From Somniosus microcephalus (taxonomy: Eukaryota): 64,000 nucleotides of DNA. The translations under genes were made by a program, and so were the position numbers. The notes beneath the pieces are model-generated. The model had not been told where the DNA came from and did no database searches. It saw nothing but the letters and a program-made list of their open reading frames with translations. The DNA lies in contig CM126220.1 in NCBI GenBank assembly GCA_052327205.1, forward strand, positions 48,422,001 through 48,486,000, written 5' to 3'. This document shows positions 8,572-52,204 of the stretch, piece by piece; position 1 is the stretch's first letter; the number at the start of each line of letters is the position of its first letter.

Positions 8572-9189
8572 CTGCAGTATGAGTGGCAGAAGGTTGCTGA
8601 CCTTCAATTGAGGAGACTGCAGATGACCTTGGAGGGCGGCCTCGAGCAGCTCTGGGCCTAGAGGGCCCGACTTCAGACTGCACCATCTCGACCTGGCCTG
8701 CAGCAGTCTGGCTGGCTGACAGGCAACAGCAAGGGCACTGGCAGGGTGTCAGGGGTCGGAGTAGGAATGCTGTCATCCTGAGAGACAGCAGCTTCATGTT
8801 CCATAGAGCCACTACCACTCTCTCAGGGCGGTGCCTCAGCAATCCTACTCATCTGTTGGAGAACAGATTGATGGGCTGCTGTGATGCCTGATAAGTGGGC
8901 TAGAGGGAACAACGCTTTTTTCCTGCCTGTACCTGTTACTATGCCATTCCACCACCTGGCAACAGACTTTGTTTCCTTCCTCTACATTAACTGTGCCAAC
9001 CCACTGGGTTTGCAAATATTTTGTTATCCAAACAACTTATTCCAGCTCTTTAAGGAATGTTTATACATGAGTTCCCGTCCCTCCACACTCCCCCTCTGGT
9101 AAGCTCCCAACACCAAGTCTGAGCCAAGGACCATTCACACGATGAAAATGAAGCTGATGCTGCAAAATCAGCCAGGATCCGCACACTTG

Positions 9190-12224: not shown

Positions 12225-12380
12225 GGTGGCGTGTGGGTCCAACAAAAACAGGGTCAAAGCGAAGGATTTTCAGAAAGTTTCGGAAGCAAGGTTGTTGGTG
12301 GCGAGGTGACAAGAATGAGGGAGCAAGTTTCAGAGGACGGGGTGTGGCAGAGCAGAGGGAGCAGGGTACAAGGAGTAACC
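12225..12380 (-). mobile_element. Old L2 LINE ORF2 C-terminal remnant (source of the adjacent minisatellite)
   Basis: Minus strand encodes SDTGLLLVPCSL...PLKLAP...FRNFLKILRFD, resembling the L2 end (RSSNSGLL.IP...LWNSLP...FK.LLKTYLFD) seen at 28430-33050. Confidence 0.6.
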
Positions 12381-14691
12381 CAGTATCAGAGGGGGCAGGG
12401 TACAAGGAGTAACCCGGTATCAGAGGGAGCAGGGTACAAGGAGTAACCACCGGTATCAGAGGAGAGGGAACAAGGGGAGAGGGAACAAGGAGTAACCTGG
12501 TATCAGAGGGAGCAGGGTACAAGGAGTAACCCAGTATCAGAGGAGAGGGAACAAGGAGTAACTCGGTATCAGAGAAGAGGGAACAAGGAGTAACCCCGGC
12601 ATCAGAGGGGAAGGTACAAGGAGTAACCCGGTATCAGAGGAGAGGGAACAAGGAGTAACCCGGTATCAGAGGAGAGGGAACAAGGAGTAACCTGGTATCA
12701 GAGGAGAGGGAACAAGGAGTAACCCCGGTATCAGAGGAGAGGGAACAAGGAGTAACCCCGGTATCAGAGGAGAGGGAACAAGGAGTAACCCCGGTATCAG
12801 AGGAGAGGGAACAAGGAGTAACCCCGGTATCAGAGGAGAGGGAACAAGGAGTAACCCGGTATCAGAGGAGAGGGAACAAGGAGTAACCCGGTATCAGAGG
12901 AGGGGGAACAAGGAGTAACCTGGTATCAGAGAAGAGGGAACAAGGAGTAACCCCGGTATCAGAGGAGAGGGAACAAGGAGTAACCCGGTATCAGAGGAGA
13001 GGGAACAAGGAGTAACCCGGTATCAGAGGAGAGGGAACAAGGAGTAACCCGGTATCAGAGGAAAGGGTACAAGGAGTAACCCGGTATCAGAGGAGAGGGA
13101 ACAAGGAGTAACCCGGTATCAGAGGAGAGGGAACAAGGGGAGAGGGAACAAGGAGTAACCCGGTATCAGAGGAGAGGGAACAAGGAGTAACCCGGTATCA
13201 GAGGAGAGGGAAGAAGGAGTAACCCGGTATCAGAGGAGAGGGAACAAGGAGTAACCCGGTATCAGAGGAGAGGGTACAAGTAGTAACCCTGGTATCAGAG
13301 GAGAGGGAACAAGGAGTAACCCGGTATCAGAGGAGAGGGTACAAGTAGTAACCCTGGTATCAGAGGAGAGGGAACAAGGAGTAACCCGGTATCAGAGGAG
13401 AGGGAACAAGGAGTAACCCCGGTATCAGAGGAGAGGGAACAAGGAGTAACCCGGTATCAGAGGAGAGGGAACAAGGAGTAACCCGGTATCAGAGGAGAGG
13501 GAACAAGGAGTAACCCGGTATCAGAGGAGAGGGAACAAGGAGTAACCCAGTATCAGAGGAGAGGGTACAAGGAGTAACCCCGGTATCAGAGGAGAGGGAA
13601 CAAGGAGTAACCTCGGTATCAGAGGAGAGGGAACAAGGAGTAACCCGGTATCAGAGGAGAGGGAACAAGGAGTAACCCCGGTATCAGAGGAGAGGGAACA
13701 AGGAGTAACCCAGTATCAGAGGAGAGGGTACAAGGAGTAACCCCGGTATCAGAGGAGAGGGAACAAGGAGTAACCCCGGTATCAGAGGAGAGGGAACAAG
13801 GAGTAACCCGGTATCAGAGGAGAGGGAACAAGGGGAGAGGGAACAAGGAGTAACCCGGTATCAGAGGAGAGGGAACAAGGAGTAACCCGGTATCAGAGGA
13901 GAGGGTACAAGGAGTAACCCGGTATCAGAGGAGAGGGAACAAGGAGTAACCCGGTATCAGAGGAGAGGGAACAAGGGGAGAGGGAACAAGGAGTAACCCG
14001 GTATCAGAGGAGAGGGAACAAGGAGTAACCCGGTATCAGAGGAGAGGGAAGAAGGAGTAACCCGGTGTCAGAGGAGAGGGAACAAGGAGTAACCCGGTGT
14101 CAGAGGAGAGGGTACAAGTAGTAACCCTGGTATCAGAGGAGAGGGAACAAGGAGTAACCCGGTATCAGAGGAGAGGGAACAAGGAGTAACCCGGTATCAG
14201 AGGAGAGGGAACAAGGAGTAACCCGATATCAGAGGAGAGGGAACAAGGAGTAACCCGGTATCAGAGGAGAGGGAACAAGGAGTAACCCGGTATCAGAGGA
14301 GAGGGAACAAGGAGTAACCCGGTATCAGAGGAGAGGGAACAAGGAGTAACCCGGTATCAGAGGAGAGGGTACAAGGAGTAACCCCGGTATCAGAGGAGAG
14401 GGAACAAGGAGTAATCCCGGTATCAGAGGAGAGGGAACAAGGAGTAACCCGGTATCGGAGGAGAGGGAACAAGGGGAGAGGGAACAAGGAGTAACCCGGT
14501 ATCAGAGGAGAGGGTACAAGGAGTAACCCGGTATCAGAGGAGACGGTACAAGGAGTAACCCGGTATCAGAGGAGAGGGAACAAGGGGAGAGTGAACAAGG
14601 AGTAACCCGGTATCAGAGGAGAGGGAACAAGGAGTAACCCGGTATCAGAGGAGAGGGTACAAGGAGTAACCCGGTATCAGAGGGAGCAGGG
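12355..14691 (+). repeat. ~32-33 bp minisatellite GGTATCAGAGGAGAGGGAACAAGGAGTAACCC, left part
   Basis: About 70 head-to-tail near-identical units with no unique spacers; occasional 14-bp sub-duplication GGGGAGAGGGAACAA. Confidence 0.97.
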
Positions 14692-14926
14692 TGATGCGCC
14701 ATCAATTACTCAAAAGACTGAGGTTAAGCGAGTAACAACCAGGCTTTTATTAACTAAAGAATGAAGGTCTAGTCTCGAGTGGTCGACCCGTCCAGAATAC
14801 TAAGGGACTGGGAGGTAGTCACTTATATACCTGGAATAGTGGGAGGAGTCAGCCGAGGCATGTCCAGACCTGTACCTAGTGGAATACACATACACATACA
14901 GACAGGTATAACAGTGGTTTACCACA
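14692..14926 (-). repeat. 3' LTR of Gypsy B
   Basis: Direct repeat of 21137-21371; TATA (GGTATATAAG) and AATAAA on the minus strand. Confidence 0.95.
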
Positions 14927-15450
14927 TTCACCCCTTGTTTAATAATGAGTCCGGCGGGGTGAAGTGTATTTAAAAGTTCGTGTATTGGAGTCTCTCCGGA
15001 GGTCTTGTCTGCCGCTGTGATCGACGTGGCGACGGCAGGGGTGGTGGAGCTTCTGGCGTCGCGTCCCGTGTAGGCTGGGGTACTGGAGTGTAGTCCTCGT
15101 GGGTGACGGTCCAAGGCGAGCCGGCTGCTGGGGTTGGATATCGGGCCGTGGGGGGGGTGGCAATGGGTAGTGGGTTACAGTGGTCCCCGAGAGTGTCGTG
15201 GGGGGGGGTGGTAATGGGTAGTGGGTTACAGCGGTCCCCGAGGGTGCGAGGTCTCGTATGGAGACTGTGTCCTCCCGCCCGTCCGGGTACGCAATGTAAG
15301 CGTACTGGGGGTTGGCGTGGAGGAGGTCAACCCTCTCGACCAGGGGGTCCGTTTTATTGGTCCTCACGTGTCTTCTCAGTAGTACCGGCCCTGGGGACGT
15401 CAGCCATGGCGGTAACGCTGTCCCCGATGTGGACTTCCTTGGGAAGACAA

Positions 15451-17360
15451 GGGATATACAAAAATGCATTAGAAATAAAAGAGGGGCTTTTGGCAGTTAC
15501 AAAAGACTAAAGACAGAAGAAGCCCTAGAGGAGTATAAAAAGTGCAGGGGCATACTTAAAAAAGAAATTAGGAGGGCGAGGAGGGGCCATGAAATAACAC
15601 TGGCGAGCAAAATAAAGGAAAATCCTAAGATGCTTTATAAGTATATTAAGGGCAAGAGGATAACCAGGGAAAGGGTAGGGCCCATTAGGGACCAAAGTGT
15701 AGAGCCAGAGGATGTAGGCGGGGTTTTAAATGAATTTTTTGCATCTGTGTTCACTATGGAGAAAGACGATGCAGACATAGAAATCGGGCAAGGGGACTGT
15801 GACATACTTGAACATATTAGCATCGAGAGGGAGGAGGTGCTAGCGGTTTTAGCGGGCCAAAAAGTGGATAAATCCCCAGGCCCGGACGAGATGTATCCCA
15901 GGCTGCTGTGGGAGGCAAGGGAGGAGATTGCAGGGGCTCTGACACTAATTTTCAGAACCTCTCTGGCCACAGGGGATGTACCAGAGGACTGGAGAACAGC
16001 TAACGTAGTACCATTATTCAAGAAGGGTAGCAGGGATAAACCAGGGAATTACAGGCCAGTGAGTCTAACATCTGTGGTGGGGAAATTATTGGAAAAAATT
16101 CTGAGGGACAAAATTAATCTCCACTTGGAGAGGCAAGGATTAATCGGGGATAGTCAGCATGGCTTTGTCAAGGGTAAATCATGTCTAACAAATCTGATCG
16201 AATTTTTCGAGGGGGTGACTAGTGGGGTGGATGAGGGAAATGCTGTGGATGTGGTTTACATGGACTTCAGTAAAGCTTTTGACAAAGTCCCGCATAGGAG
16301 ACTGGTCAAGAAGGTAAGAGCCCATGGGATCCAGGGTGCCTTGGCGCGTTGGATCCTAAACTGGCTGAGTGGCAGGAGGCAGAGGGTGATGGTCGAAGGT
16401 TGCTTTTGTGACTGGAAGCCTGTGTCCAGTGGGGTACCTCAGGGATCGGTGCTGGGTCCCTTATTGTTTGTGATCTACATAAATGATTTGGATGAGAATG
16501 TAAAAGGTATGATCAGTAAGTTCGCAGATGACACGAAAATTGGTGGGGTGGTAAATTGCGAGGAGGAAAGCCTCCGGCTACAGGACGATATAAACGGGTT
16601 GGTCAGATGGGCGGAAAAGTGGCAAATGGAATTTAACCCTGAAAAGTGCGAGGTGATGCATTTTGGACGGACAAATAAGGCAAGGGAATACACAATGAGT
16701 GGTAGGACCCTAGGAAGTACAGAGGGTCAGAGGGACCTTGGTGTACATGTACATAGATCCCTGAAGGCAGCGGAGCAGGTAGATAAGGTGGTTAAAAAGG
16801 CATATGGGATACTTGCCTTCATTAGCCGAGGCATAGAATATAAGAGCAGGGAGGTTATGATGGAGCTGTACAAAACGCTGGTGAGGCCACAGCTGGAGTA
16901 CTGTGTGCAGTTCTGGTCACCTCACTATAGGAAGGATGTGATTGCTTTGGAGAGGGTGCAGAGAAGATTCACCAAGATGTTACCTGGGATGGAGCGCCTC
17001 AGCTATGAAGAGAGGCTGGACAGGCTGGAGTTGTTTTCCTTGGAGCAGAGAAGGCTGAGGGGGGACCTGATTGAGGTGTACAAAATAATGAGGGGCATAG
17101 ATAGGGTAGATAAAGAGGAACTTTTCCCCTTAGTGGGGGGGTCAATAACAAGGGGGCATAGATTCAGGGTAAGGGGCAGGAGATTTAGAGGGGATTTGAG
17201 GAGGAACTTTTTCACCCAGAGGGTGGTTGGAATGTGGAACTCAATGCCTGAAAGGGTGGTGGAGGCAGGAACCCTCACAACATTCAAGAAGCATTTGGAT
17301 GAGCACTTGAAATGCCATTGCATACAAGGCTATGGACCAAATGCTGGAAAATGGGATTAG
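15451..17360 (+). pseudogene. CR1 ORF2 reverse transcriptase fragment (open frame, no endonuclease, no native start)
   Basis: KSPGPD, NYRPVSLTS, DFSKAFDKV, GVPQGSVLGP, KFADDTK; no internal stop over ~636 codons. Confidence 0.93.
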
Positions 17361-17446
17361 ACTGGACAGGGATGGATGGGCGGTGCAGACACGATGGGCC
17401 GAAGGGCCTCTTTCTGTGCTGTAAAACTCTATGACTCTATGACTCT
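15451..17446 (+). mobile_element. 5'-truncated CR1 LINE nested in the Gypsy B integrase; flanking AAGACAA repeat
   Basis: AAGACAA at 15444-15450 and 17447-17453; (ctctatga)n tail; removing it restores the integrase sequence HEKMF-VFPRKS. Confidence 0.95.
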
Positions 17447-17776
17447 AAGACAAACATTTTCTCGTGAGGGGTGGCATTGGTGGCAGTGCAGAGCAGTGAC
17501 CGAATCGAGTGGAGCGCATCGGGGAGCACCTCCTGCCAGCGGGAGGTCGGAAGGCCCCTAGACTTTAAGGCTAGTAGGGCGGCCTTCCAAACTGTTGCAT
17601 TCTCTCTTTCCACCTGTCCGTTCCCCCGGGGGTTGTAACTGGTGGTCCTGCTTGTGGCTATACCCCTAGCGAGCAGGTACTGGCGGAGTTCGTCGCTCAT
17701 AAACGATGAGCCCCGGTTGCTATGGATATAGCTGGGGAAACCGAACAGGGTGAAGAGGCTGTTCAGACATTTAATG

Positions 17777-17978
17777 GTGTGGAGATGCCGGAGTTGGACT
17801 GGGGTGGACAAATGTAAGAAATCACACAACACCAGGTTATAGTCCAACAGCTTTATTTGAAATCACAAGCTTTCGGGGCGCTGCTCCTTCTTCACCTGAA
17901 GAAGGAGCAGCGCCCCGAAAGCTTGTGATTTCAAATAAAGCTGTTGGACTATAACCTGGTGTTGTGTGATTTCTTACA
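17777..17978. mobile_element. Short Penelope-type inverted (foldback) insertion with a ~15-bp flanking duplication
   Basis: Perfect inverted arms 17811-17894 and 17897-17980; TTCAGACATTTAATG at 17762-17776 and 17979-17993; contains CTGAAGA...GAAA. Confidence 0.85.
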
Positions 17979-20900
17979 TTCAGACATTTAATGACTGTGG
18001 CACTGGTCATGTCCGGGCAGGGGATAGCGAACGGGAAATGGGAGTACTCGTCAATGATGTTGAGGAAGTACACATTGCGGTCGGAGGAGGGGAGAGGCCC
18101 TTTAAAATCGACGCTCAGGCGTTCGAAAGGGCGAGTGGCTTTTATCAGGTGGGCTCTGTCTGGTCTATAAAAGTGCGGTTTGCACTCAGCGCAGACTTGG
18201 CAGTTCTTGGTCATGGTCCTGACCTCCTCAATGGAGTAAGGCAGGTTGCGGGCCTTGATGAAGTGGAAGAACCTGGTGACCCCCGGGTGGCAGAGGTCAT
18301 TGTGGAGGGCCCTCAGCCTATCGATCTGCGCACTGGCGCAGGTGCCACGCGATAGGGCATCTGGGGGTTCATTGAGCTTCCCAGGCCGGTACAAGATCTC
18401 GTAATTGTAGGTGGAAAGTTCGATCCTCCACCTCAAGATCTTGTCATTTTTGATTTTGCCCCTCTGCTTGTTGTTGAACATAAAAGCAACTGAACGCTGG
18501 TCAGTGAGCAGGGTAAATCGTTTTCCGGCCAGTTAGTGCCTCCAATGACGCACAGCCTCCACAATAGCCTGGGCCTCCTTCTCGACCGCGGAGTGTCTGG
18601 TCTCCGGGCCCTGGAGGGTTCGTGAGAAGAATGCCACAGGTCTCCCCGCCTGATTAAGGGTGGCGGCCAGAGCGAAGTCGGACGCATCGCTTTCCACCTG
18701 GAAGGGGATGGATTCGTCCACTGCGTGCATGGTGGCTTTGGCAATGTCCTCCTTGATACGGTGGAAGGCCGAGCGGGCCTCTGCCATCAGGGGAAAAGAG
18801 GTGGATTTGATCAGCGGACGGGCTTTGTCTGCATAGTAGGGGACCCACTGGGCGTAGTAGGAAAAAAATCCTAGGCACCTCTTCAGAGCTTTTAGGCAGT
18901 GGGGCAGTGGGAGTTCCATAAGGGGACGCATCCGGTCCGGGTCGGGACCGATGACCCCGTGTTCCACAACACAGCCAAGGATGGCGAGGCGGTCTGTGCG
19001 GAATATGCACTTCTCCTTGTTATATGTCAGGTTCAGGAGTTGGGCGGTGCGGAGGAATTTCTCGAGGTTTGCGTCATGGTCCTGCAAGTCATGGCCGCAG
19101 ATGGTCACATTGTCTAGGTAAGGGAAAGTGGCCTGCAGCGCGTTTTGATCGACCATCCGGTCCATCTCCCTTTGGAAGGCGGAGACCCCGTTGGTAACGC
19201 CAAAGGGAACCCTAAGGAAGTGATAGAGGCGGCCGTTTGCCTCAAAAGCAGTATACTGGCGGTCTTCGGGGCGGATGGGGAGCTGGTGGTACGCTGATTT
19301 CAGGTCAATGGTCGGAAAGACGCGGTACTGCGCGATCTGGTTGACCATGTCAGCTATGCGGGGGAGTGGGTAGGCGTCCAGCAGGGTGTAGCGGTTTATT
19401 GTTTGGCTGTAGTCGATGACCAGGCGTTGTTTCTCGCCGGTCTTAACGACCACAACCTGGGCTCGCCAGGGGCTGGAGCTGCCCTCAATAATCCCCTCCT
19501 TCAGGAGCCGCTCCACTTCAGTTTTGATGAAAATCCTGTCCCCGGCACTGTATCGCCTGCTCTTTGTGGCGATGGGCTTACAGTCGGGGGTGAGGTTAGC
19601 AAACAGTAGCGGGGGTGGGACTCTGAGTGTGGAGAGGTTGCATCTGGTGCGCGGCGGGCAATTTGGAGGCTGCTGGCTGCAGACTGTGAGTGGGGGGAGG
19701 GGGCCACCGTACGCCATCGTAACGCTTTTGAGGTGGCACTGGAAATCCAACCCCAGTAGAACGGCAGCGCAAAGTTGGGGCAGGACCAGGAGTTTAAAAT
19801 TATTGAACACAGTCCCGTCTACTACTAGTGTCACCACGCAGTAGCTGCCAATGTCCGCTGACTGAGACTCGGCGGCCATAGAAATCCGCTGGTGCGCAGG
19901 CAGGACTGGGAGAGAGCAACGCCGCACCGTGTCGGGGTGGATGAAGCTCTCTGTGCTCCCGGAGTCAAAAAGGCAGTTTATTGCATGGCCGTTTACCTTA
20001 ACGTCCATTTTGGACCGAGCTAGTTGGTGCGGTCTCGTTTGGTCCAACGTAACAGAGGCCAGTGTAGGGGTCGGTGTGTCGCTGCGGGTATCAGATGGGG
20101 GGGGGTTGGCAGCCTGCTGCGTCCCGGCTGGTGTCCAAGATGGCGGCGTCCATGATTCCCATGTGGCTGGAGTCGTCCAAGATGGCTGCTGCTGCGGTGG
20201 TTCGCACATGGCTGGGGAGGCCCAAGATGGCGGCCCGCACGGCCCACACGCGGCGCTGTTGGGGGCCCAAGATGGCGGCTCGCACGGCCCACACGCGGCG
20301 CTGCTGGCGTTCGGGGTGGCTTTGGCCTTGCAGATGCTAGCGTAGTGTCCCTTTTTCCCGCAGCCCGAGCAGGTCGCATTCTTCGCCGGGCAGCGCGCTC
20401 TGGGGTGTTTGGCCTGGCCACAGAAGTAGCATTTCTGGCCTTGGGATACTGCTGTCTGGCTTTGGGACACTGCTGCAGTGGTTGGGCCGTTGTTGGGCTG
20501 TGGCTGGGGTGGCACGGTGCTATGGGGCTGTCCTACCGTGTCCCAGGTTGTCGTTCCCCGCGGCGTCCACGGTGCAGAGGACTAGGCATCCATGCCCCGG
20601 TAGGCTGCGTCCAGCGTTAGTGCGATTTCGGAGGCTTTGTCGAGGGTGAGGTCACTCTGCTCCAGCAGTCGCTGTCGGGTGTAGTTGGACCTGTGGCCCG
20701 CTACGAAGGCATCCCGGATCAGTTCCTCCGTGTACTTAGTGGACGTTACCACCTTACACCCACAGGCCCGGCCAAGCACGGACAGTGCTTGGAGGTATTC
20801 CTCAGTCGATTCCCCAGGTTGTTGCTTGCGACTCCCCAGGAGGTGCCTGGCGTAAACTTCGTTCACAGGGTGCGTGTACTGGGTCTTGAGGAGCTGGAGG

Positions 20901-21136
20901 GCGGCTGTGTACGAGGTCGCGTCCCGGATGACTGAGTACACTCGGTGGTTCACCTTGGAGATCAGGACAGACAGTTTGTTCGCATCCGTTACGACCGCAG
21001 TGGAGGCAGTCAGGAATGCCTCGAAGCACATGAGCCAGTGAGCAAACTTGGTGGAAGCGTCCGCTTCCCGACTGTCCAGGTCCAGGCATGCTGGTGTGAG
21101 GATCTTCTCCATTATAAAAAATTTAGTTAATAAAAT

Positions 21137-21371
21137 TGATGCGCCATCAATTACTCAAAAGACTGAGGTTAAGCGAGTAACAACCAAGCTTTTATTAACT
21201 AAAGAATGAAGGTCTAGTCTCGAGTGGTCGACCCGTCCAGAATACTAAGGGACTGGGAGGTAGTCACTTATATACCTGGAATAGTGGGAGGAGTCAGCTG
21301 AGGCATGTCCAGACCTGTACCTAGTGGAATACACATACACATACAGACAGGTATAACAGTGGTTTACCACA
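21137..21371 (-). repeat. 5' LTR of Gypsy B
   Basis: Direct repeat of 14692-14926; gag ATG lies only ~25 nt downstream. Confidence 0.95.
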
Positions 21372-22038
21372 CAGGGTACAAGGAGTAACCCGGTATCAGA
21401 GGAGAGGGAACAAGGAGTAACCCGGTATCAGAGGAGAGGGAACAAGGAGTAACCCGATATCAGAAGAGAGGGAACAAGGAGTAACCCGGTATCAGAGGAG
21501 AGGGAACAAGGAGTAACCCGGTATCAGAGGAGAGGGAACAAGGAGTAACCCGGTATCAGAAGAGAGGGAACAAGGAGTAACCCGGTATCAGAGGAGAGGG
21601 AACAAGGAGTAACCCGGTATCAGAGGGAGCAGGGTACAAGGAGTAACCCTGGTATCAGAGGAGAGGGAACAAGGAGTAACCCGGTATCAGAGGAGAGGGA
21701 ACAAGGAGTAACCCGGTATCAGAGGGAGCAGGGTACAAGGAGTAACCCTGGTATCAGAGGAGAGGGAACAAGGAGTAACCCGGTATCAGAAGAGAGGGAA
21801 CAAGGAGTAACCCGGTATCAGAAGAGAGGGAACAAGGAGTAACCCGGTATCAGAGGAGAGGGAACAAGGAGTAACCCGGTATCAGAGGAGAGGGAACAAG
21901 GAGTAACCCCGGTATCAGAGGGAGCAGGGTACAAGGAGTAACCCCGGTATCAGAGGAGAGGGAACAAGGAGTAACCCAGTATCAGAGGAGAGGGAACAAG
22001 GGGAGAGGGAACAAGGAGTAACCCGGTATCAGAGGAGA
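21372..22038 (+). repeat. ~32-bp minisatellite, right part
   Basis: About 20 further units; register continues across the CAGGG TSD. Confidence 0.97.
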
Positions 22039-28333: not shown

Positions 28334-28536
28334 AACTATTTTGTTTTCTCATCCTTGTTTTCACATCCCTCCATGGCCTCGCCCTCCCTTATCTCTATAA
28401 CCTCCTCCAGCCCTACAACCCTCCGAGATCTCTGTGCTCTTCAATTCTGGCCTCTTGCGCATCCCCGATTTGAATCGCTCCATCATTGGCGGCCGTGCCT
28501 TCAGCTGCTTTGGCCCTAATCTCTGGAACTCCCTTC

Positions 28537-28790
28537 TGTTAAGTCTGTGGGTTGTATTATAAATAATCACAGACTCCACTGTTAACAAAATAAAACACGT
28601 CTTTACTATTCAGAGGCTCGGGCGATTCCTGATCTAGTTAACGTATCACAACCCTTATATACTGGTGTGGTCACTATCGGTATTACAGTATACATGAGCC
28701 AATAAATAGTGCCACCCTAAAGTAGTGCTCTTAAAGGCGAACGGTCACATTCTATAGTTCCCTTAAAGGTAAACGGTTACATACACAACA
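28537..28790 (-). repeat. 3' LTR of element C
   Basis: 28629-28790 is identical to the 5' LTR; 28537-28628 is divergent. Confidence 0.93.
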
Positions 28791-29178
28791 CTCCTCCCTT
28801 CCTAGCTTATTACTTACAGAATCCCGTTAAACATACAATCTTCAATTTTATATAAACAGTTTGCAGATATACTCTCGATGGAGTCAACGTCATATAACAA
28901 TTTACAGATATACTCTCGATGGAGTCAACGTCATATAACTTCATGTTTAACATAACATAATAACATATATAACTTCATGTCAAAACAGATCACAGATTCA
29001 GTCTCTGTGGAAAACAGTTCATAGATTCAGTCTCTGTGGTGTAGTCGGTTCACATTGCTGGAGTGACTCATTCAATAGTCCTTCCATGGGTTTAACAGTT
29101 TGAACTTCCGAACTGAATTGGCTCCGTTCGGAGGGACCACGTGTGTGATCTGGTAGAGGTAATAATGGTTCAGATGGG

Positions 29179-31884
29179 TCATCTTCTGTTTCGACTTTTC
29201 CTTTTCTGCTTCTTGGAGACTCTCTGGGCTCCACTGTCAGCTGCCAGCTGCATGCGCAGTTCCTCCTTCTCTTCCTCCTTTTTCCGTAGTAGAGCCACCT
29301 TCTCCCGATGTTCCGTAGACTTTCGGTGCTCCTCCATGATTTCTGTATGGTGGGAGTCGAAGTTACAAGTTGGGCAGGACAGGACATAGTAATATTCGGA
29401 GTCGTCCTGAGCTAGGCCAGCGAGAGGGTCTTCTATGTCCTCCCTACCCAGCTGGACGTCAGCCAGCTTTTGTTCCAAATCCAGACATCTTTCCTGAAGA
29501 GACTTCTTCACGTGTTCCGCTTCCTCTAACTTTTTCTGGGCTTTCAGCAAGTTGTTTACTAATGACCTCATTTGTGATTTTAATACTTCAACTTCCTTTG
29601 GAGATTGATTGATCGGACTATTCAATCCCTCTACCGGAGCAGTTGTTTCAGCGTTCTGTTGTTCAACCTTGACATGAGTCAGCGTACTTTTGGTATCTAA
29701 GGGTTGCTCTGCTGCCATCTTCTCAGTCTGTGTTGCAACCTCGGCTATTTCAATAACTTTTGAGAGCTCCAAACCCTTCTCCTCTGACGATTTAAGCTCA
29801 TGTTCATGGCCCATTCTTACGGTCTCTGTGTTTCTTACAGTTCCCTTTTCTTCCACTGAAAAGATTTCCAGTTGCATCTGTTCTTCAAGTCGTTGGACCT
29901 CGGCCATTGCCGCTTCATATTTATTTTGTGTTTCCTTTAATAATTTAACGAGTTCTTGGACATCCTGTATTCCCTGTTCTGGTATGTCTTCCACCACTAA
30001 TTTTTTTCCTATGGATTTAATCCCTAACGATGAGTCAGCCTTGGCCTGAAGCTCATCAAACATTTCCTGCAGACTTTGTAATTCTTGCTTATGGTCAACC
30101 TTTAGTCGTTCATGTTCAACCTTTAGTTGCTCATATGCTTTCACTAACACGAGCTTTTCGGAAGTTGCCAAGTTAACCTCTTCCAGGATTGTAGTCCGAG
30201 CCTGTTCATACTGTTCTTTCAACTCGTTACACTCTGCTTGCAACAAGTCGTAGAGGTGAACTGGAATACCATCCTGACTTCTTGAAGATTCCTCTTCCTT
30301 TGGATCGTTCTGTGTATATTCTAGTTCCTGAACAGCCTCAGGGAGATGTGATTGGTACTTGGCCACGATGGCTCTATGGTCGCTCTCTGCTTGAGCGAGC
30401 TGTCTCTGTTGTCTTTCCAGGGACTCCCATTCGGTGTCCCAGAACTTTTTCACCTTTTCCATCTCTTGTAGGAGACGGGCACTCAACTGTTCTAATTGTC
30501 GTTGTACTTTGACATAACGTTGAGTTCTAGCCCGGTGTTCCTCCGTAATGCATATGTCTGTAGCTTGAACAGACTCAGAATTCTCTGTCTTTATGCACGC
30601 CATCGATTTCCCAACCTTAGTCCGTGAGTTCATGTTAATCTTGTTTTTCATACATAAGCTGGACTTATCGTCTTCCGGCTCGGAGTCTGAGCTGCTTGTC
30701 TGCACCGAGTCCTCACTCGTCATTGCTTGTCGGTAGTGCCATTCCATGTCTATTTTCTTGATCCACTCCCGTCCCAGAAGTGGTGGTCCTCCCTCAGGTA
30801 GTACGTACAGATACATTCGTGGGTGTTCTTTACCCCTATCTCTCACCTTGACTCGTATTTTTCCCAGGGGGTATACATGATGCCCCGTGTATGTCTGTAA
30901 TACGAATTTGGTATTTCTTAAGGGTATGTGAGAGAATAGCCGGTGATAGTCCTTTTGGTTGATGACGGATACAGCTGATCCCGTGTCCAGCTCCATTCGT
31001 ACTTGGACTCCCGCTATTTTTAGTGTGACCCAGATCAACTGTAGATCAGTTACTTTACCCACATGGTGGATTCTCAGACTATCCAGCTCCTGGCTGTTTG
31101 GGTCTGAGTCTGAATTTTGTTCGTCTGAACTCTTTTCAGCCACCTGATGCACCTTGTTGTACTTTCCTTGTGGTGGTGGCTTCCTTTGCTTGTTGGTCTT
31201 CTTTCCGGACCTGCATACCTTCGCGATGTGACCCAGTTTGCCACATTTCCTGCACTCTTGGTTCTTAAACCAGCACTGATTCTGGTCGTGCGTTGTCTTT
31301 CCACAACGGTAGCATTTGGGAGTGCTTGCTGTAATTTGGTCCACCCCGAGTGCCGCCGCCTTTAGCTGCATTTCCGCCGTCCCTTTCGCTGCGGCTTCGT
31401 GCGATGAAGCTATGAGGACAGCCCTGTCCAGTGTGAGGTCGTTTTCTTCCAGAAGTCGCTTCTGCGTTCCTTCTTTGGCCAAGCCGCATACGAACTTGTC
31501 CCGCAGCGCCTCTGTCAAATTCCCTCCAAACTGGCAGTATTTCGCTAGCTTACGCAGTTCGACTAAGTATTCCGCATTGCTTTCATCTTGCCTCTGGGTT
31601 CTGGCGTAAAATTTAAATCGTTCAGCCAGCATCAACGGTGTGGGGTTCAAGTGATCCTTCAACACTGTTACGATCTCTTCGAAGGTCTGGTCCACTGGTT
31701 TAACTGGTGCTATTAGATGTTTCAAAAGCCCGTATGTTTTTGCTCCCATCGAATTTAACAAAGTTATTGCCTTGTTGTCATCCTCAATTTCGTTGGCTAC
31801 GCAATATATTTCTATGCGTTCCACATACGTGGCCCAGTCTTCTATTTCTGCATTAAAGTCATTAATATTTCCTCGCTTAGGCAT
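29179..31884 (-). CDS. Gag-CCHC-protease fused to a ~500-aa coiled-coil and zinc-finger cargo (901 aa from ATG 31884)
   Basis: Uninterrupted ORF; MPKRGNINDF Gag homologous to elements A and D; CYRCGKTTHDQNQC; MELDTGSA; after GREWIKKIDMEW the sequence becomes E/K/Q/L-rich heptads, then CPTC-x12-H-x5-H. Confidence 0.88.
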   Translation of the reverse strand: MPKRGNINDFNAEIEDWATYVERIEIYCVANEIEDDNKAITLLNSMGAKTYGLLKHLIAPVKPVDQTFEEIVTVLKDHLNPTPLMLAERFKFYARTQRQDESNAEYLVELRKLAKYCQFGGNLTEALRDKFVCGLAKEGTQKRLLEENDLTLDRAVLIASSHEAAAKGTAEMQLKAAALGVDQITASTPKCYRCGKTTHDQNQCWFKNQECRKCGKLGHIAKVCRSGKKTNKQRKPPPQGKYNKVHQVAEKSSDEQNSDSDPNSQELDSLRIHHVGKVTDLQLIWVTLKIAGVQVRMELDTGSAVSVINQKDYHRLFSHIPLRNTKFVLQTYTGHHVYPLGKIRVKVRDRGKEHPRMYLYVLPEGGPPLLGREWIKKIDMEWHYRQAMTSEDSVQTSSSDSEPEDDKSSLCMKNKINMNSRTKVGKSMACIKTENSESVQATDICITEEHRARTQRYVKVQRQLEQLSARLLQEMEKVKKFWDTEWESLERQQRQLAQAESDHRAIVAKYQSHLPEAVQELEYTQNDPKEEESSRSQDGIPVHLYDLLQAECNELKEQYEQARTTILEEVNLATSEKLVLVKAYEQLKVEHERLKVDHKQELQSLQEMFDELQAKADSSLGIKSIGKKLVVEDIPEQGIQDVQELVKLLKETQNKYEAAMAEVQRLEEQMQLEIFSVEEKGTVRNTETVRMGHEHELKSSEEKGLELSKVIEIAEVATQTEKMAAEQPLDTKSTLTHVKVEQQNAETTAPVEGLNSPINQSPKEVEVLKSQMRSLVNNLLKAQKKLEEAEHVKKSLQERCLDLEQKLADVQLGREDIEDPLAGLAQDDSEYYYVLSCPTCNFDSHHTEIMEEHRKSTEHREKVALLRKKEEEKEELRMQLAADSGAQRVSKKQKRKSRNRR

Positions 31885-32724
31885 CTTCTTCTCTTTTTGA
31901 GAACAGTACAAGTATTACTTTACTTATTATTAATTTTCTTCTCTCTTCTTGAGAACACACCAGCCTTTCTGAAAAATCTTATTACTTTTCTGAAATTCTT
32001 AATAATTTCCAAGATGGCGGTTTCCCGCTTCTTCCTTCTTCTTCAGCGGTTTTCCCCGAAAAATGGCAGCTTTCCCGCGCTTCTCGCTCTCCCCGCCCAC
32101 TTCAATGGCGGTTTTCCCGCGCTTGGCGGTCTTCACCCGGTCCCCCGACGCCGTCTGTCAGCCCGAGTGCGGCCCTTATCTATAATGCGATCGCTGGATC
32201 GCGAAGCGGCTGCCGGCCCTTTATCTGTAGATCCGATCGCTCTCGCGGCTCTCGGCCCTTATCTGGAGATGCGATCGCTGGCTTGCAACGCCTCCCGCTC
32301 GGCTCTGGCTCCCCCGCTCGCGCGGCTCTCGGCTCTGACACTCTCGCGCCTACTCGCAGGCTCAGCGCTTCGTGGCAGCGGTTGCTGCACGGCTTCTCAC
32401 ATTGCCCGCGGTCCGGCTGTCACCCGACGCCGTTGGACCCGAATGCTTTGCCCTTCTCCTCCAAATACTTCTACCCCGTTTTTTTTTTTAAATTTATTTG
32501 TTTTAACTACTCACAGTCTCTTCGGCCGCCTTGTTTTAGGCTGATTGGCTCGCTCAAGATGTGGTAGCAGGGTAATCTGTGCCTGTTGCTGCCGCAGCTT
32601 TGCTGTTAATCTTCCAGCTTCCAGTAAGTACTATCCTTTTAGTAGACGGAGCCTCGTGTTTTCTTTTTGAAGCTCTCTGCTACTGGTTAGTCTTGCCGCA
32701 GGGTACGATCGGACTCGTCGCCAC

Positions 32725-32978
32725 TGTAAAGTCTGTAGGTTGTGCAGTAAATAACTTCAGAGACTTTAGAAGTACAAACAAAACAGGTCTTTACTATTCG
32801 GTGGTCTGGGCGATTTCTGATCTAGTTAACGTATCACAACCCTTATATACTGGTGTGGTCACTATCGGTATTACAGTATACATGAGCCAATAAATAGTGC
32901 CACCCTAAAGTAGTGCTCTTAAAGGCGAACGGTCACATTCTATAGTTCCCTTAAAGGTAAACGGTTACATACACAACA
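32725..32978 (-). repeat. 5' LTR of element C
   Basis: Adjacent to the PBS; ends TGTTGTGTATGTA...GACTTTACA (element sense) are shared with element D. Confidence 0.93.
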
Positions 32979-35900
32979 CCTTCCTAAACCTCTGCCTCTC
33001 CACTTCTCTCTCTTCCTTTAAGACGCTCCTTAAAACCTACCTCTTTGACCAAGCTTTTGGTCATCTGTCCTAATATCTCCTTATATGGCACAATGTCAAA
33101 TTTTGTTAGATAACGCTCCTGTGAAGCGCTATATAAATGCAAGCTGTAGTTGTTGTTGTTGTGTATGTATGTATTAATATATAAGTAATACGCCTTTCCT
33201 AACTTGGCTTGCTAAATCTTGATACAAATTTTAGAATTGTCTTGGATTGTAGTATTATTAGATTTAAACTCAAGCCCAGATAAAGGTTTTCTATCCCTCC
33301 GGGCATTTTATATATCTGGCAATAATGGGCCAAGTGATGAGATTTAATAAAGCAACAATTTTGCCAAACGTTTGCATGCTCGAGAGTGATGAATGATATT
33401 CCACTTTGGAAGCAAGTTCCTTTGTTAAAATGACAGCAATGTTGGATTAATTGCATCATGTGCTCTCCAAGAACTGTAATTCTGTATTTAGGGGCCAATG
33501 GGATTTAATGGCTACACTGTGTAACACTAACAGGAATTGCTTCATAATTCAGAGACTTTAGGTTTATATGTTGCTAATGTCTGACATGTGAACCTGCCTT
33601 TGTTATGAATGTTGTCCGTTCTCAGCCAGGATATTTGGTGGAGTGTTTCATGACTATGGAGAATCTTGCTGCATGGGGAAAAACTAAAGGTAAGTCCATT
33701 TACTCATTTCACTTTCCATTTCTGGCATTTGTGCAGAGGTCCAGGGTTTGGAGCTCAACTATTGCCCACGCTGCTCAAAGAAGCTGTGTGAGATAAGCAG
33801 TTTCATGTGTTGTGCTGTGTTGTGTGGTTAGGGGAGAGAAGACACAGAAATTTTAAAAAACCACATAAATCAAATGATGTTATCAGGGATCGATGTACAT
33901 ATTTAACGAAGGACCCCACTGATTTTCAGCAGGTATCCCTCTCACCTGCTCAGAAGAGCAAATTAAAACCGAAGACTGGTGAAATGAGAGGGTCGTCAGC
34001 GGGTAAGTCCCCTGGGTCTTTATAACTGCCTGCCCACCTGGTTTCCGTAAAGAAGATGGTGGTGGTTATTCTGTCAATCACTTCATTTTTCTTGTTAAGT
34101 CTTCACCGATAGAGGATCCCAATCAGTTTTTATAAAGAGGAAGTAGCAGTTTTATACTAGATCATCATAAGGCAGTCCTAATGGGGAACGATAACTTATG
34201 TCTTAACCCCTTTTACATGCAGGAACAAAACCACTAACCTCTTGACTTTAAGCAACTAAGGGATTTGACGTCTACAGCATTTATTTGAAAATGGTAAATT
34301 CAGAAGCTTTATCAGAATCTTTTAGAATCAAGACCAAGTCATTTTACCAACTTAACAAACAAAAGGAGGTGGAGGAGGATGGGTGGGGAGACCACAATAA
34401 ACTGACAACACAAACTCTATTATGAAATTATTAACTAAATATGGACCAAACATCTTCTTCAGATTAAATGGATTTATTCTAATGAGTCCAAGAAATAAAT
34501 AACATCTGTTCTTTCAATGACAAATTCTAGTAAAATTAATTCCTTATAATAATATAAAATTAATAACATATAAAGCAGAAAAATAGTACAGAAAGTATTT
34601 TATAATGCTTTTTATGTTCTTTAACTGCAGATCCAACTTCGGATTCAGCACAAATTCTCATTGGCCTGTGTCACACCATCGTAATTCTCATCTTGATGAA
34701 CCTGGATGAACAGCAAGGGCCCATAGTGCAGAACACCACCAGGGCACTGTATCTTGGATTCAACAAAATGAGGATGCAAAGCAAGAAAGATCAATTCCAT
34801 TCAGTGCCGCTGCCATGCCAATGTTAACACTCCTGCTTAGTCACTCACCGATTTGAAATACAGATGCTCTGGATAAATTGTGCAGCATGTTTCTCGAACG
34901 ATGGATGTTCTCAAATGATTAAATATAAGATCACAAGGATTTTATGACTTCCACAGTATGGGAAAGGAGAAACAGGATAGGGGGAGAGAAAAAGAGGAGA
35001 TTCGAACTACCCCACCCCCATCCAGTATTGTTACACCCATGACAGACTTGGGGTCAATGTGCGATTGTGGATGCTACTCGCATATTGTTGGTCTGTAACA
35101 ATTTGCAGTGGGGTCTTTTACACACAATTTGTGTTGTGAAGAATGTTCCTTTGCAACCTTTGTTTCCAATGTTGGCTGCTGGCTAAGGAGCCCAAGGACC
35201 AAGATCTCAGGAGCCCAGCCTTTAAAAGAACCTATGATTCAGGAACATAGATCCCATGTGCAATCAGTGGAGACAGTCTCCTCTCATATGGTGCGGGTGA
35301 TGGGAAAGTTGGAGAAATCTACAACTTGTATTTGCAATACAATGCAGGAGGGATGGCATAATAGCTAATGGCATAGTTAGCTGCAACTTCTGATGAAGTA
35401 TTTGCATAATATTTTTGATAATACAGAAAGACAGAGATAATCCCATCTTTAATATACAATCAGCATATTAAGTTGGCATAGACATCAGCGCAGTTACTTA
35501 AAAACTGCAGACTTGGGATGGGGTTGATTGGTGCATTGAGTCAGCACACTTATTTTTTTGCTTCAGGTAGTTGGATTAGAATCAAACCCAGACTGGTGGG
35601 CTGAAAGTCTGCTCTCTCTATCCTGGCTGTAGGAGGCGATAGGTTTGCAAAGTCTCAAACCAGTTCCTAGTGCGTATGCATCCACCGCATAAAATTACCC
35701 ATATTTCAGCATAAATTGGCACCAAAATGGCAATTTAACCCCGTTCACAAGAATGTTGATGCAGTACAGGGCACCGTAATAGATTAAACAACAGTGAGCG
35801 GAGTAAAGGGAGCATTAGTCTGAACTGGGTCATGCTGTACCTGATTTGAGAATGCTCCATGTTGATACTGGATACCAAAAGAAGTGGTTAATTCCCGAGC

Positions 35901-46520: not shown

Positions 46521-48238
46521 AGGTGTTTCAATAATGGGTAGGTTATGCTGAAATGAACATTGTTTAAAGCTACATTGTCCTCTGAGTGAGTCTTCATTCG
46601 TCAACTAGGCAGCCTCCAATTTCAAAAAAATAAAACTGGTAGTCTGAAATAAAAGTGAAAAAATGATGAAAATACACAGCTGGTTCATCTGTAAGGAGAA
46701 ATTTGAGGTTAACATTCCAACGCAGCTGGAAACTGAAAGATATACAAGCCCCTCCAGAGGAGTGATCAAAATAGAGAGATAGCAGAAATGTCAGCAATCC
46801 AAACTTTTGACTTTTGACTTTTACCTGTCACATAGGGGGGAATTTTTCAGGGGGTCAGCAGGGGCATTTGGAGGCGGGTCAGCTGGGAAAAAAATTTTTG
46901 ACAGTGGGTATGGAGCCCGCTGTCAACCCGTATTCACGCTAGTCTCCCAGATGTTGGGTCTGTCATCGTTGAACAGACCTGACACCAAGCGGCGAGGGAG
47001 GCAATTTACATCATTAGAGAGATTATAAAGAGGCAATTAACTAGTATTTTATGCTTAGCTTTAGATTTTTAGAGTTTGCCAACGGCTTCCCCACAGCTAG
47101 GGGATCACGTCAGGTAAGGAGGTCGGGTGTTGTGTCAGCATGTGATGATTTACTAACTTGACAGCTGCAAATGGTCTATAAAAGCTCCCATTTCATAGGT
47201 GTTCACTCTCCAAGATGAGAAGCTGTTTCTTACTGCATTTGGAAGACACAGTGCGCTTTATGCAGGTTGCAAGTGTTTGGAGCAAACTCTCTATCCAGTG
47301 TCACCTCATTGGAACAACCTCTCTCACCACTGACAGATCGCTTCTGTCATCTCAACCTCACCTGCCAGCTATTCCATCAGCATCGTTGCCCTTGAAAAAA
47401 TCTCACCTTGATCCTCAGAATCCCACCACGATCAGCCCCAACACCAGCAGCACCAGCAGCACCATGAAAAAAACACCAACCTTCTCCGCAATCAGCTGGT
47501 GCTGAACAGGACCGAGGGCATCAGCACCTGACCACATTGCTGCCTTGGAGGCCAGGGATGGCCTCACCATGGCCAGATTTACTTCACTTGACGCTGTACA
47601 CCCTGGCTGCCATATGATGAGCCAGGTTGGCACCACTCCACACTAACACCATAAAGCATCTCTACAATGCCCAAACCATTCTTTTCACACTCATGGCCAT
47701 TGCGGGGGATACTGTTATATCTCACCATTCACTGCAACTCACTAAGCCACTTCCAAAGGTGCACACAAATCTGTCCAAGAATGCAAATTGTTGACAATAA
47801 AGATTCCAATGTTTGACAGCACATTAACAGAAACTTCACATGAACATTAGCTAAAACACACAAGTGCCTACCCTTGTGTACTGTTAGTTGGTATGATTGG
47901 ACTATGATGAGGGTGAGTGTGAGGGGCGGATAGTGAGATGTGGAAGTTGTAAAGTCCGCGCCTCAATAATACACGGACTTCGGGAGAACAGTTTAACAGG
48001 TACTTTACTGAACAAGAGGCAGCTTGAAACTGAAACTACAGAAGCCTGCTAGGGCCTTTTATACAGGGGTGGTCACTGCCGGTACTGCAGTCTAAGACCA
48101 GTTATTCCCTTAAAGGTACATACACAACAATTCCTCCCCTTTTAGATAAACAGTACATAACATTCATTTAACAACTAAATAATAACTAATTACAATTACA
48201 ATTTTCTCAGTAATATATACATCAACTGAAATAGTCAT

Positions 48239-51200
48239 TTATAAGTTCAGTCTTTGAGGAGGCTTCCTGATCCGGACTGGATAGCGCCTTTCTCGAGTAT
48301 CCTGTTCTGGCGGTGGAGTCAATTCTGGCTCATTGTCATTGGTTGGTTCGTCAGCTTCCAATACCACTGCTTCTGAGGTAGACGCAATCTGTACTTCGGG
48401 CTCATTACCAGGTGCACATGCTTGTGGTACAGGTTTGGCTTGTTCCTGGGACTTTAGAATCTGGTCAGCATGGCATCTCACGATGCTCTCTCCAACGTCC
48501 ACTGTGTACATTAGTGGTCCCTGCTGTGTGCATATCGTGCCTGGCTGCCATTTTTCTGTTCGGTAGTCGCGGGCCAAGACTGGTTGCCCTATCTTGAAGC
48601 TCCTGGTTGGCTTCTCATTTATGTGTTGGAACTGCTTATCCTCAACATCTCATCTTATGTTTGGTTTGAGCAAATCCAAACGACATCTTAGTCTCCGGTT
48701 GAAAAACAGTACAGCTGGAGTTTGGTTGGTTACTGCATGTGTCGCATTCCGGTAAGCAAACAGGAAGTTATCCACCTTGTGTTGCAGTGGTATGTTGTCA
48801 TTATACATTGCCTTTATGGCCTTTTTAAAGGTCTGAACAAACCTCTCAGCCAATCCATTTGTGGCTGGATGATATGGGGCAGATGTGTAATGTTTCACCC
48901 CATTATTCTTCAGGAACCTCCGGAAATCCTCAGACACAAACTGTGGGCCATTGTCGGAACAGATCTGTTCTGGCAACCCATTCCTGGTGAAGATGGTCCT
49001 TAGGACTGCAATAGTTTTCTCTGTGGTGGTGGAGGACATTTTAATGACCTCTGGCCATTTTGAATGGGCGTCCACAGCGATTAGAAACATTGAGTCCATA
49101 AATGGACCAGCGAAATCAATGTGTACCCATTGCCATGGAGATGAGGGCCACTCCCATGGATGTAGCGGGGCCTGTGGTGGAGCGTTTTGGACCTTCTGGC
49201 ATCCTGTGCATCTCTTGGTCATATCCTCGATTTCTTTATCGATTCCCGGCCACCACACAAACACCCTGGCTAGGCTCTTCATTTTTACCCCTCCCAGATG
49301 ACCCTCGTGAAGCTCATTGAGTACTCTATCTCTCAATTTGGGTGGAATTACCACTCGGGATCCACACATCAAGGTTCCCCGGCACACTGACAGCTGTTCC
49401 CTCCTTGGCGAGAATGCTGGCAACAGTGAGTCGCCATATGCTGGCCATCCCTTCACCGTCAAATCATAGACCCGAGAGAGTGTTGGGTCATTTCGGGTTT
49501 CCTTCTCAATACTTGCGTTTGTAACAGGCAAACATTCGACTATGGTCGCATGGAATATCTCCACCGGGTCCACTGCAGGTGCTTCTTCCGCCGTAGGCAA
49601 CGGTAGGCGCGACAGCCCATCAGCATTTCCATGTTGTTTCGTACCTTTGTACTCTATGTCATACTGATGTGCCCCTAGAAAAAGTGACCATCTTTGCAGC
49701 CGTTGCGCCGTCATCACCGGAACGCCCTTCTTTGGGTTAAAAATTGAGACCAGGGGTTGATGATCAGTCAGTAGGGTGAATTTCTGCCCGTGCAGATAGT
49801 GATTGAACTTCTTCACCCCCCACACCAGGCTGAGGGCCTCCCTGTCAATCTGGGCGTAGTTACGCTCGGCTGAGGTTAGCGAGCGTGACGCAAAGGCTAT
49901 TGGCCTCTCTGAACCGTCACAGAATTTGTGTGACAGCACCACTCCAATGCCGTAAGGTGACGCATCACATGCCAACCGAATCGGTAGTGTTGGGTTGTAG
50001 TGGGCCAATACTTCTTTTGAAGTGATTTGGCATTTACATTCCTGAAAGGCACGCTTACACTCATCACTCCATTTCCATGTTACACCAGTTTGAAGGAGGG
50101 CGTTCAGTGGGTGCAGAATTGTAGATAAATTCGGCAAGAACTTATGGTAGTAGTTCACCAACCCGAGGAACGACCTCAGTTGCGACACATTTTCTGGTGC
50201 TGGAGCCTTGACTACAGCCTCAATCTTGTCCGGCGACTTATGCAACCCTTCCTCATCAATCATGTGGCCACAATACGAGATTTGTCTCCTGAAGAACTCG
50301 CATTTGGGACGGTTGGCTCGTAGCCCGTATTCCTGCAATCTCGTGAGCACCTGTTCCAGGTTGGCAAGGTGTTCATTGTCATTTTCGCCCGTGACCAAGA
50401 TGTTGTCCAAATAACACTGGGTCCCCGGGATCCCTTGCAGGACTTGTTCCATTGCCCTCTGCCACATAGCCGGGGCCGATGCTACCCCAAATACCAGTCG
50501 ATTGTACTGGTAAAGGCCTTTGTGAGTGTTTATCGTGAGGTATTTCCTAGATGCTTCTTCCACCTCCATTTGTAGATACGCTTGAGCCAGGTCAATCTTT
50601 GAAAAACATTTCCCTCCAGATAGTGAGGCGAAAATATCTTCTATCCGCGGAAGCGGATACTGTACTGTGTGCAGGACTGGGTTCACAGTCACCTTGAAGT
50701 CCCCACAGATGCGAACCTTCCTTGGCTCCCCAGGCATGCTGCTCAATGCTTTCTTCATTACAGGAACGATGGGTGTGGCCCACTTGCTCCAGTCCACCTT
50801 AGACAGCACCCCCGAATGCTCCAGACTCTCCAGTTCAGCTTCCACAGCTGGGCGTATCGCGTATGGCACTGGTCTGGCCTTGAAAAATTTTGGGGTTGCG
50901 TTATCCTCAATCTTTATGGTTGCCTTTACTCCTTTTAGAGTCCCAAGTCCTTGTTGGAACACCTCTTCCGCGTCAGATAGAATTTGTGACAGACGTCCAG
51001 GTGCGACGTCATCATCTTTTTTGTCAGTCACAGTTAGTGCCAGAATGGAATGCCAATCCAATTGTAGTCTTCGGATCCATTCACGTCCCAATAATGGTGG
51101 TCCTCCATCTCGTAGTATATACATGTATAGTTTCTGTGTTTCCTTTCCGTTATATTCAACTGGCACCCTTATTTTTCCTCTGGGGTAGACCTTTTGCCCC

Positions 51201-52192: not shown

Positions 52193-52204
52193 CTTGGGCA
52201 TTTT

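Follow-up and report, generated by a model that had tools for sequence, protein, structure and literature searches.

A non-autonomous Ty3/Gypsy element with a single open frame

In a 64,000-nucleotide (nt) stretch of the Somniosus microcephalus contig CM126220.1 (the window, in whose positions all coordinates below are given), we found a complete long terminal repeat (LTR) element on the minus strand (28537-32978, 4,442 nt), whose single open reading frame (ORF) joins Gag and protease to a cargo derived from host genes (Table 1). Untrimmed to its first methionine, the frame spans 29179-31914 (-), and it contains all three coiled-coil motifs to which a preliminary description of this DNA had drawn attention. 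A Pfam search of the 901-amino-acid (aa) protein (P0001) returned Gag and protease only, with reverse transcriptase (RT), RNase H, integrase, and env absent; the ~515 aa of cargo after the protease gave 0 matches in Pfam and PDB sequence searches, and an Rfam search of 28500-33000 likewise gave 0 matches. Gag-protease is 57% identical over 396 aa to a gag-pol frame elsewhere in the window (48650-52339; P0002), in which the Pfam domains follow the Ty3/Gypsy order of protease, RT, RNase H, and integrase, and the LTRs of the two elements share ~40 nt. On the grounds of its LTRs, its target duplication, and its Gag-protease homology, the window element is a non-autonomous Ty3/Gypsy LTR retrotransposon, and it falls outside the autonomous class.

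An ANKRD24-like gene as donor of exons in inverted order

The preliminary description had compared the three motifs to the ANKRD24/RAI14/UACA family and noted that the one expected nearest the host C-terminus came first. Motifs 1 (30343-30405) and 2 (30199-30273) are present exactly as positioned there, and motif 3 (29848-29922) within 3 nt. The family assignment also held, in that all 13 matches (13/13) of a protein search with residues 400-740 were elasmobranch ankyrin proteins (best E 2.6e-43), the closest of which carry two names in databases, ankycorbin and ANKRD24-like, and in that the DNA matches one gene on C13 (62.85-62.88 Mb) of the window's own genome. More specifically, residues 528-709 are 58% identical to P0003 573-747, in mid-protein, and residues 510-529 are identical at 15 of 20 positions to P0003 1136-1155, near the C-terminus; the order is thus inverted relative to the host, as had been proposed.

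We mapped the last five exons of the C13 gene and read their splice sites. At the DNA level, the window element matches a 1,512-nt exon (the big exon) at 81% over 538 columns and the penultimate exon (N-1) at 88% over 67 nt, the big exon sitting two places upstream of exon N-1 in the host gene; in sister copies of the element, the two host exons are matched at 97.0% and 97.7%. Neither exon N-4 nor the last exon of the gene had a match in the window element or in sister copy L034. Between the window element and the next paralog found, on C2, there was no DNA match, so that UACA need not be invoked; we rejected it as the donor of motif 3, for which it had been proposed, since all three motifs map to the C13 gene.

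In the element, the last base of exon N-1 is followed directly by the first of the big exon, with no base added or lost. On the host side, an AG and a GT border exon N-1, and a pyrimidine tract and AG precede the big exon. The ordinary N-2/N-1 joint is present as well, because four bases specific to the end of N-2 precede N-1. A contig of run X3 departs from the host exon at the same N-1/big-exon joint. As read from these letters, a single capture across a back-splice-type junction accounts for the order of the ANKRD24-like exons, and the several captures or shuffling events previously suggested are unneeded. Capture from spliced RNA, also suggested there, is proven by the exon-exon joints at 30394/30393 and 30328/30327; the absence of introns, cited in its favor, is uninformative for motifs 2 and 3 because both lie inside one 1,512-nt exon.

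Both switch points are visible in L046, a copy that has no ANKRD24-like piece and in which 44 nt stand at the place taken by the capture. The right fusion, read from sister L034 versus L046, comprises 4 nt of exact homology inside a 7-nt near match. The ANKRD24-like piece ends at these internal switch points without a poly(A) tail and contains exons only from within the putative circle, as do retrocopies of circular RNAs; introns are missing, it lies in the sense direction, and it multiplied after capture, as in LTR-mediated retrocopies. Moreover, the introns flanking the putative circle share an inverted repeat (~450 nt, 80%, 408 bits), compared with 70 bits and none for inner-intron controls against the same upstream intron. 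Comparison with the host gene at the nucleotide level, as the preliminary description had recommended, gave an 81-88% DNA match that spans exon-exon junctions, with breakpoints and short homologies mapped, and this similarity goes far beyond that of a generic coiled coil.

A complete turn of a putative STK10-like circle in related copies

Relatives of the window element carry exons of a second gene in a circular order. The STK10-like host gene lies on C8 (167.19-167.20 Mb), and five of its exons (a to e) total 1,245 nt; read around the corresponding circle, they contain no stop codon. In copy L105, the insert runs b(part)-c-d-e-a-b(part), with the donor of exon e joined to the acceptor of exon a at GT and AG; it measures 1,259 nt (1,245 + 14), ends 14 nt beyond its start point in exon b, and differs from one turn of the circle by 12 mismatches and no gap. 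The e/a joint is also found in L104, L107, and L108, and exon a, which encodes the end of the STK10 kinase domain, stands after the PKK coiled coil in the element. Because the flanks of the L105 insert match an autonomous element before RT and at the 3' end, the STK10 turn probably replaced RT-RNase H-integrase and founded the lineage. The window copy keeps the eroded STK10-like remains listed in Table 1, but the e/a joint is not retained in it.

Two other readings of STK10-derived sequence were rejected: a weak ankyrin-repeat resemblance of residues 427-508, a stretch that is STK10-derived, and an integrase tail in the stretch after optineurin in subfamily A, which consists mostly of STK10 exons a and b. 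Exon c of the host STK10-like gene has a GC donor (L120, C8:167193683).

Copy number, mobility, and transcription

The ANKRD24 junction of the window had 488 matches in its own genome, and the form found in sister subfamilies had 3,363, compared with 0 for reversed controls; the summed contig depth of run X1 does not amount to a copy number. In a search of the same genome with the cargo, the best 40 of 4,121 candidates were scored, and all 40 were 99-100% identical. Twenty loci from these top 40 matches yielded 18 full-length and 3 partial copies; as these are the best matches, the share of intact copies among them is biased upward. Of the 18 full-length copies, 15 have a perfect 5-bp target duplication, 12 have identical LTRs, 13 have the 901-aa ORF (one more could not be scored), and all carry the junction. 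The element family is young and has spread by retrotransposition. At L096, a tandem of two full-length copies has a shared 5-bp spacer; both copies have the same shortened frame, and their outer flanks differ. The host intron between exons N-2 and N-1 holds an antisense sister copy (L043 7068-10000), and an ANKRD24-free copy (L046 329-2800) lies ~15 kb downstream; at this copy density, both placements are probably due to chance.

The 3' LTR of the window copy is of two kinds, and 92 nt of its last 94 nt (28537-28630) match copy L094 exactly. This suggests that two LTR variants were joined in the window insertion; strand transfer between co-packaged RNAs would be expected to do this, as would later conversion. 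A systematic discordance of 5' and 3' LTRs in the subfamily was rejected, being peculiar to the window copy among the copies examined.

When RNA runs X7 and X8 were mapped to the host big exon at a cut-off of 95%, below which the window subfamily (81%) falls, and over a stretch that leaves exon N-1 outside, the part shared with the element was covered up to ~500-fold by element alleles. Coverage of the sister-subfamily cargo in X7 was mostly sense (depth 334-503 versus 10-35 in three bins). Sister subfamilies are thus transcribed under the organism label of X7 and X8, which may differ from the species of the window. A search for runs with the window cargo listed no RNA run; a share of 0.46-0.70 of its words was contained in six rows, which belong to three organism labels.

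Other cargos and the order of acquisition

Other host genes are represented in the element family. Six optineurin exons are matched between L072 3019-3897 and C17:85879057-85890333, the piece beginning 9 nt past an acceptor and running as far as the last exon's end; around this block (introns 2 and 8), no inverted repeats were found. The optineurin piece may represent almost one whole turn of a third circle, the joint itself being missing from the piece. The donor of the zinc-finger tail, which may be DNAJC21-like, showed no J-domain exons in the 70 kb searched, and an ESM Atlas search with the tail gave only scores of <0.9 and no name. In the subfamily with a 1,123-aa frame, an EVI5 coiled-coil piece with internal deletions relative to EVI5 enters ~12 nt after the ANKRD24 back-splice joint. 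In L104, L106, and L109, several I-set immunoglobulin (Ig) domains interrupt the STK10-like exon a piece without breaking the frame.

Copies can be arranged by the cargos they hold: (i) STK10-like cargo only (L105, L107, and L108); (ii) optineurin added as six colinear exons (L072-L076); (iii) zinc-finger tail added (L101 and L046); (iv) ANKRD24-like piece added (L069-L071, 97-98% identical to the host); and (v) EVI5 added (L066-L068 and L077); a side branch has I-set Ig domains (L104). Since the cargos nest among the subfamilies, we infer the capture order STK10, optineurin, zinc finger, ANKRD24-like, and EVI5, with the Ig branch aside. The window subfamily is a later mosaic that changes at ~29800: its 5' side is nearest to ANKRD24-carrying sisters, and its 3' side is 92.5% identical to L046. 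Subfamilies 15-30% apart still hold a long open frame and number hundreds to thousands of copies.

Table 1. Features of the window element in positions of the 64,000-nt window
Feature	Position	Strand	Remarks
5' LTR	32725..32978	-	254 nt; TG...CA
Predicted primer-binding site	32714..32723	-	Directly after 5' LTR; from position and known LTR anatomy
Single ORF, Gag-protease-host cargo	29179..31884	-	901 aa from first Met; Gag with two CCHC knuckles
Aspartyl protease	30757..31029	-	Pfam PF13975/PF13650, residues 296-386; scores slightly under curated cut-offs
STK10-like exons b, d, and e, eroded	30398..30718	-	76-84% to host; PKK coiled coil; probably from founding capture
Left switch point	30394..30404	-	7-nt homology between older cargo and exon N-2 end, plus 4 nt specific to N-2 (L034, L046, and host compared)
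ANKRD24-like exon N-1 (penultimate), whole	30328..30393	-	66 nt; 88% to host; bears most of motif 1
Back-splice-type junction	30327..30328	-	Last base of exon N-1 to first base of upstream big exon
ANKRD24-like big exon, start	29795..30327	-	81% to host; 21-nt internal duplication; motifs 2 and 3
Later crossover, ANKRD24-carrying with ANKRD24-free subfamily	29795..29806	-	~12-nt similarity; replaced right joint in window copy
Optineurin cargo, colinear, no introns	29435..29806	-	Three host exons matched in window copy, 81-89%
Zinc-finger tail, two spliced exons of gene at C1:4.79 Mb	29179..29338	-	78% and 89%
STK10-like exons a and b, remains	29067..29187	-	84-92% to host; now mostly 3' untranslated region (UTR)
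Polypurine tract before 3' LTR	28791..28802	-	From position
3' LTR	28537..28790	-	First 160 nt identical to 5' LTR; last 94 nt variant, 22 mismatches
Target-site duplication, 5 bp	28532..28536, repeated 32979-32983		

Proposed mechanism of capture

We consider it very probable that the cargo was acquired by repeated template switching at microhomologies onto co-packaged host RNAs, on two occasions onto circular RNAs. Gag and protease would be the element's own products, and RT and integrase would have to come from an autonomous relative. A host circle of the big exon, N-2, and N-1, whose 1,743 nt are divisible by three, would have been packaged together with element RNA; during minus-strand synthesis, RT would have departed from element sequence at a short homology within the optineurin cargo and landed ~640 nt into the big exon, run to the first base of that exon, passed over the back-splice junction into N-1 and then the end of N-2, and re-entered the element at the 7-nt homology. 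One event with two switches would in this way give the inverted order. The captured product retained an open frame, integrated, and multiplied as an ordinary element. The STK10 founding event would have been alike, with a full turn of the circle in place of RT-RNase H-integrase, and degradation of the circle by RNase H behind RT would force a return after one turn.

A broader proposal, that the lineage is a collector of circular RNAs whose particles prefer host circles, copy at most one turn, and so acquired most cargos, optineurin included, is one that we put forward only tentatively.

Several observations weigh against capture from circles. The optineurin and EVI5 cargos are colinear, with no back-splice junction. 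The part of the big exon that only the host has is covered at a depth of 0-0.12 in X7 and X8; the host gene is thus silent in these runs, and the circle, unobserved in them, would not be expected there. No inverted repeat was found within 5 kb on either side of the STK10 circle, and the one around the ANKRD24 circle is only a modest sign, because 3 of 45 optineurin intron pairs reach at least 170 bits, one of them 389. The ANKRD24 joint lies in a 4-nt homology, CAGG, and because of this position a third template switch would yield identical letters. The gag-pol copy at 48650-52339 is not identified as the helper, because of its low Gag-protease identity and the little LTR sequence shared. To these may be added the selection of best matches among the copies examined and the dependence of the estimated cargo constraint on the assumed transition bias (kappa).

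Constraint on the cargo and its role

Between the window subfamily and its sisters, the ratio of nonsynonymous to synonymous substitution rates (dN/dS) of Gag and protease is 0.04-0.18, with Gag dS near saturation; both are under strong purifying selection. The ANKRD24 part compared with the host gave 0.41, or 0.68 (0.44-1.07) at kappa 4, and the pooled cargo gave 0.40 (0.28-0.57) at kappa 1, 0.63 (0.45-0.88) at kappa 4, and 0.74 (0.53-1.01) at kappa 8. Given capture as proposed above, we lean toward a cargo that is translatable filler in the place of Pol, weakly constrained and not a working host protein.

The alternative that is least easily set aside accepts capture from circles and holds that the truncated cargo protein serves the element or the host, e.g., as an optineurin or coiled-coil decoy. 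All cargos seen are in the sense direction and in frame, from at least six donors; dN/dS is below 1 at kappa 1-4; and sister-subfamily cargo is present in RNA, mostly sense in X7. Against this, between subfamilies cargos have been freely shortened, exchanged, or pushed into the UTR by frameshifts, the donors are a mixture of unrelated genes with Ig domains among them, selection for no more than an open frame already favors host frames, and the confidence intervals of dN/dS reach 1 at higher kappa. We regard a function of the cargo as possible, yet the less likely of the two roles.

Alternative origins of the scrambled joints

Linear RNAs with repeated exons, produced by trans-splicing of one pre-mRNA to another or from a genomic tandem duplication of the exon block now lost or absent from the assembly, would yield the same exact donor-acceptor joint, and Dong et al. 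(PMC4897178) caution that non-colinear joints may have other sources; that the host circles were unobserved in the RNA runs also speaks for such a source. Nevertheless, the host regions examined hold no second exon copy, each exon having been found once in 160 kb (ANKRD24-like) and 100 kb (STK10-like). In addition, the event would be required twice, in two genes, and it offers no cause for the entry into and exit from STK10 within 14 nt of one period, for which we estimate a chance of ~2% (28/1,245). This origin therefore seems improbable to us.

Less probable still, and very unlikely in our judgment, is the packaging of linear mRNA only, with a third RT switch at CAGG joining the end of N-1 to the start of the big exon. 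For the ANKRD24-like piece, a circle needs two switches, whereas linear mRNA needs three, one of them hitting two splice sites. The 4-nt homology does exist, the lineage switches templates often and at short homologies, and multiple switches are possible according to the text of PMC5131818. Yet in the spliced 3' part of the C13 gene (five exons, 1,956 nt), a post hoc count gave 3,968 in-frame backward homology blocks of at least 4 nt, only 1 of which falls on two exon boundaries, and that one is the observed joint. The STK10 joint is likewise base-exact at splice sites and completes a full turn, and the other mapped switch points lie inside exons, although both optineurin ends are within ~10 nt of exon borders.

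A generic low-complexity coiled-coil resemblance or an assembly artifact, to which the lack of a Pfam or PDB match for the ANKRD24 part and off-register coiled-coil alignments at ~20% identity might point, can be dismissed: the DNA is 81-98% identical to a single host locus and respects its exon borders exactly, thousands of copies occupy separate sites flanked by target duplications, and an X3 contig leaves the host exon at the same joint.

Relation to known systems

LTR-mediated retroposition by template switching at microsimilarities has been described by Tan et al. (2016, PMC5131818). As in the retrocopies presented in their main text, host RNA in the shark element replaces an internal part of the ORF with short similarity at both fusion points, and the cargos are sense, in frame, from several parent genes, and carried through later rounds as a non-autonomous element. 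Unlike the shark case, that main text contains 0 occurrences of the word "circular"; and whereas 14 of 21 older retrocopies reported in it have loss-of-function changes, the shark subfamilies keep an open frame.

Pseudogenes derived from circular RNAs (circRNAs), e.g., 33 mouse circRFWD2 copies, have been reported by Dong et al. (2016, PMC4897178). The shark element resembles them in its reversed exon-exon joint, its restriction to exons of the circle, its LTR context, and its many copies. Those copies are pseudogenes, whereas the shark element is open (901-aa frame in 13/18) and in frame behind Gag-protease, and two different circles appear to have entered one shark lineage. The circles of Dong et al. 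are known from RNA-seq, while those of the shark are deduced from the captured exons. They call the mechanism mysterious; the shark lineage preserves switch points, a pre-capture subfamily, and a complete single turn.

In maize, the LTR element Bs1 carries pieces of several unlinked host genes as a hybrid ORF (PMC5131818, PMC5408686). It is like the shark element in its multi-donor hybrid ORF, but it is a plant element with three donors, and the passages on Bs1 in these sources mention no back-splice joint. A shark genome preprint (10.1101/2024.09.09.611499) describes single-exon OPTN copies flanked by LINEs or LTRs; these are likewise intronless optineurin near LTRs, but its main text, in which "circular" and "Gypsy" have 0 occurrences, reports them as retrogene duplications.

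In the open-access literature, we found no description of the shark element family; repeat libraries or supplements could contain one. Plant TR-GAG elements are non-autonomous LTR elements with Gag under purifying selection and without RT and integrase. Compared with these, the shark element retains protease too, and its Pol space is filled with host cargo. Two phenomena already known, LTR-mediated gene capture and circRNA-derived retrocopies, come together in the shark element.

The route by which circular RNAs return to genomes was left open by PMC4897178. Preserved at 97-99% identity are the states before and after capture, the points of switching, and a whole turn of a circle; they support template switching in LTR particles and predict a one-turn limit of circle copying. 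Back-splicing would thereby have supplied an exon-permuted, in-frame coding sequence to a mobile element, which then spread to ~3,850 sites. For intronless copies of OPTN, STK10, EVI5, and ANKRD24 in shark genomes, transposon cargo should be excluded before they are called adaptive duplications. If the lineage were indeed a collector of circles, one could read its subfamilies as a dated record, in fossil form, of the circular RNAs of the germ line; in-frame proteins with permuted exons would readily arise from those circles whose length is divisible by three.

Other sequences in the window

The frame of the gag-pol copy at 48650-52339 (-) is long and open, and the LTR parts beside it (47948-48129 and 52758-52939) are 98% identical. 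A second related gag-pol Ty3/Gypsy copy (5038-8661, +) has stops and is 82-87% alike to the first. A 32-bp satellite array occupies 12353-22016 and is interrupted by a segment of ~6.4 kb. Long frames lie on both strands of this segment (15300-17360, +, and 17837-21154, -); it also contains an inverted repeat of 84 nt without mismatch (17811-17980), and its two ends carry a 235-nt direct repeat.

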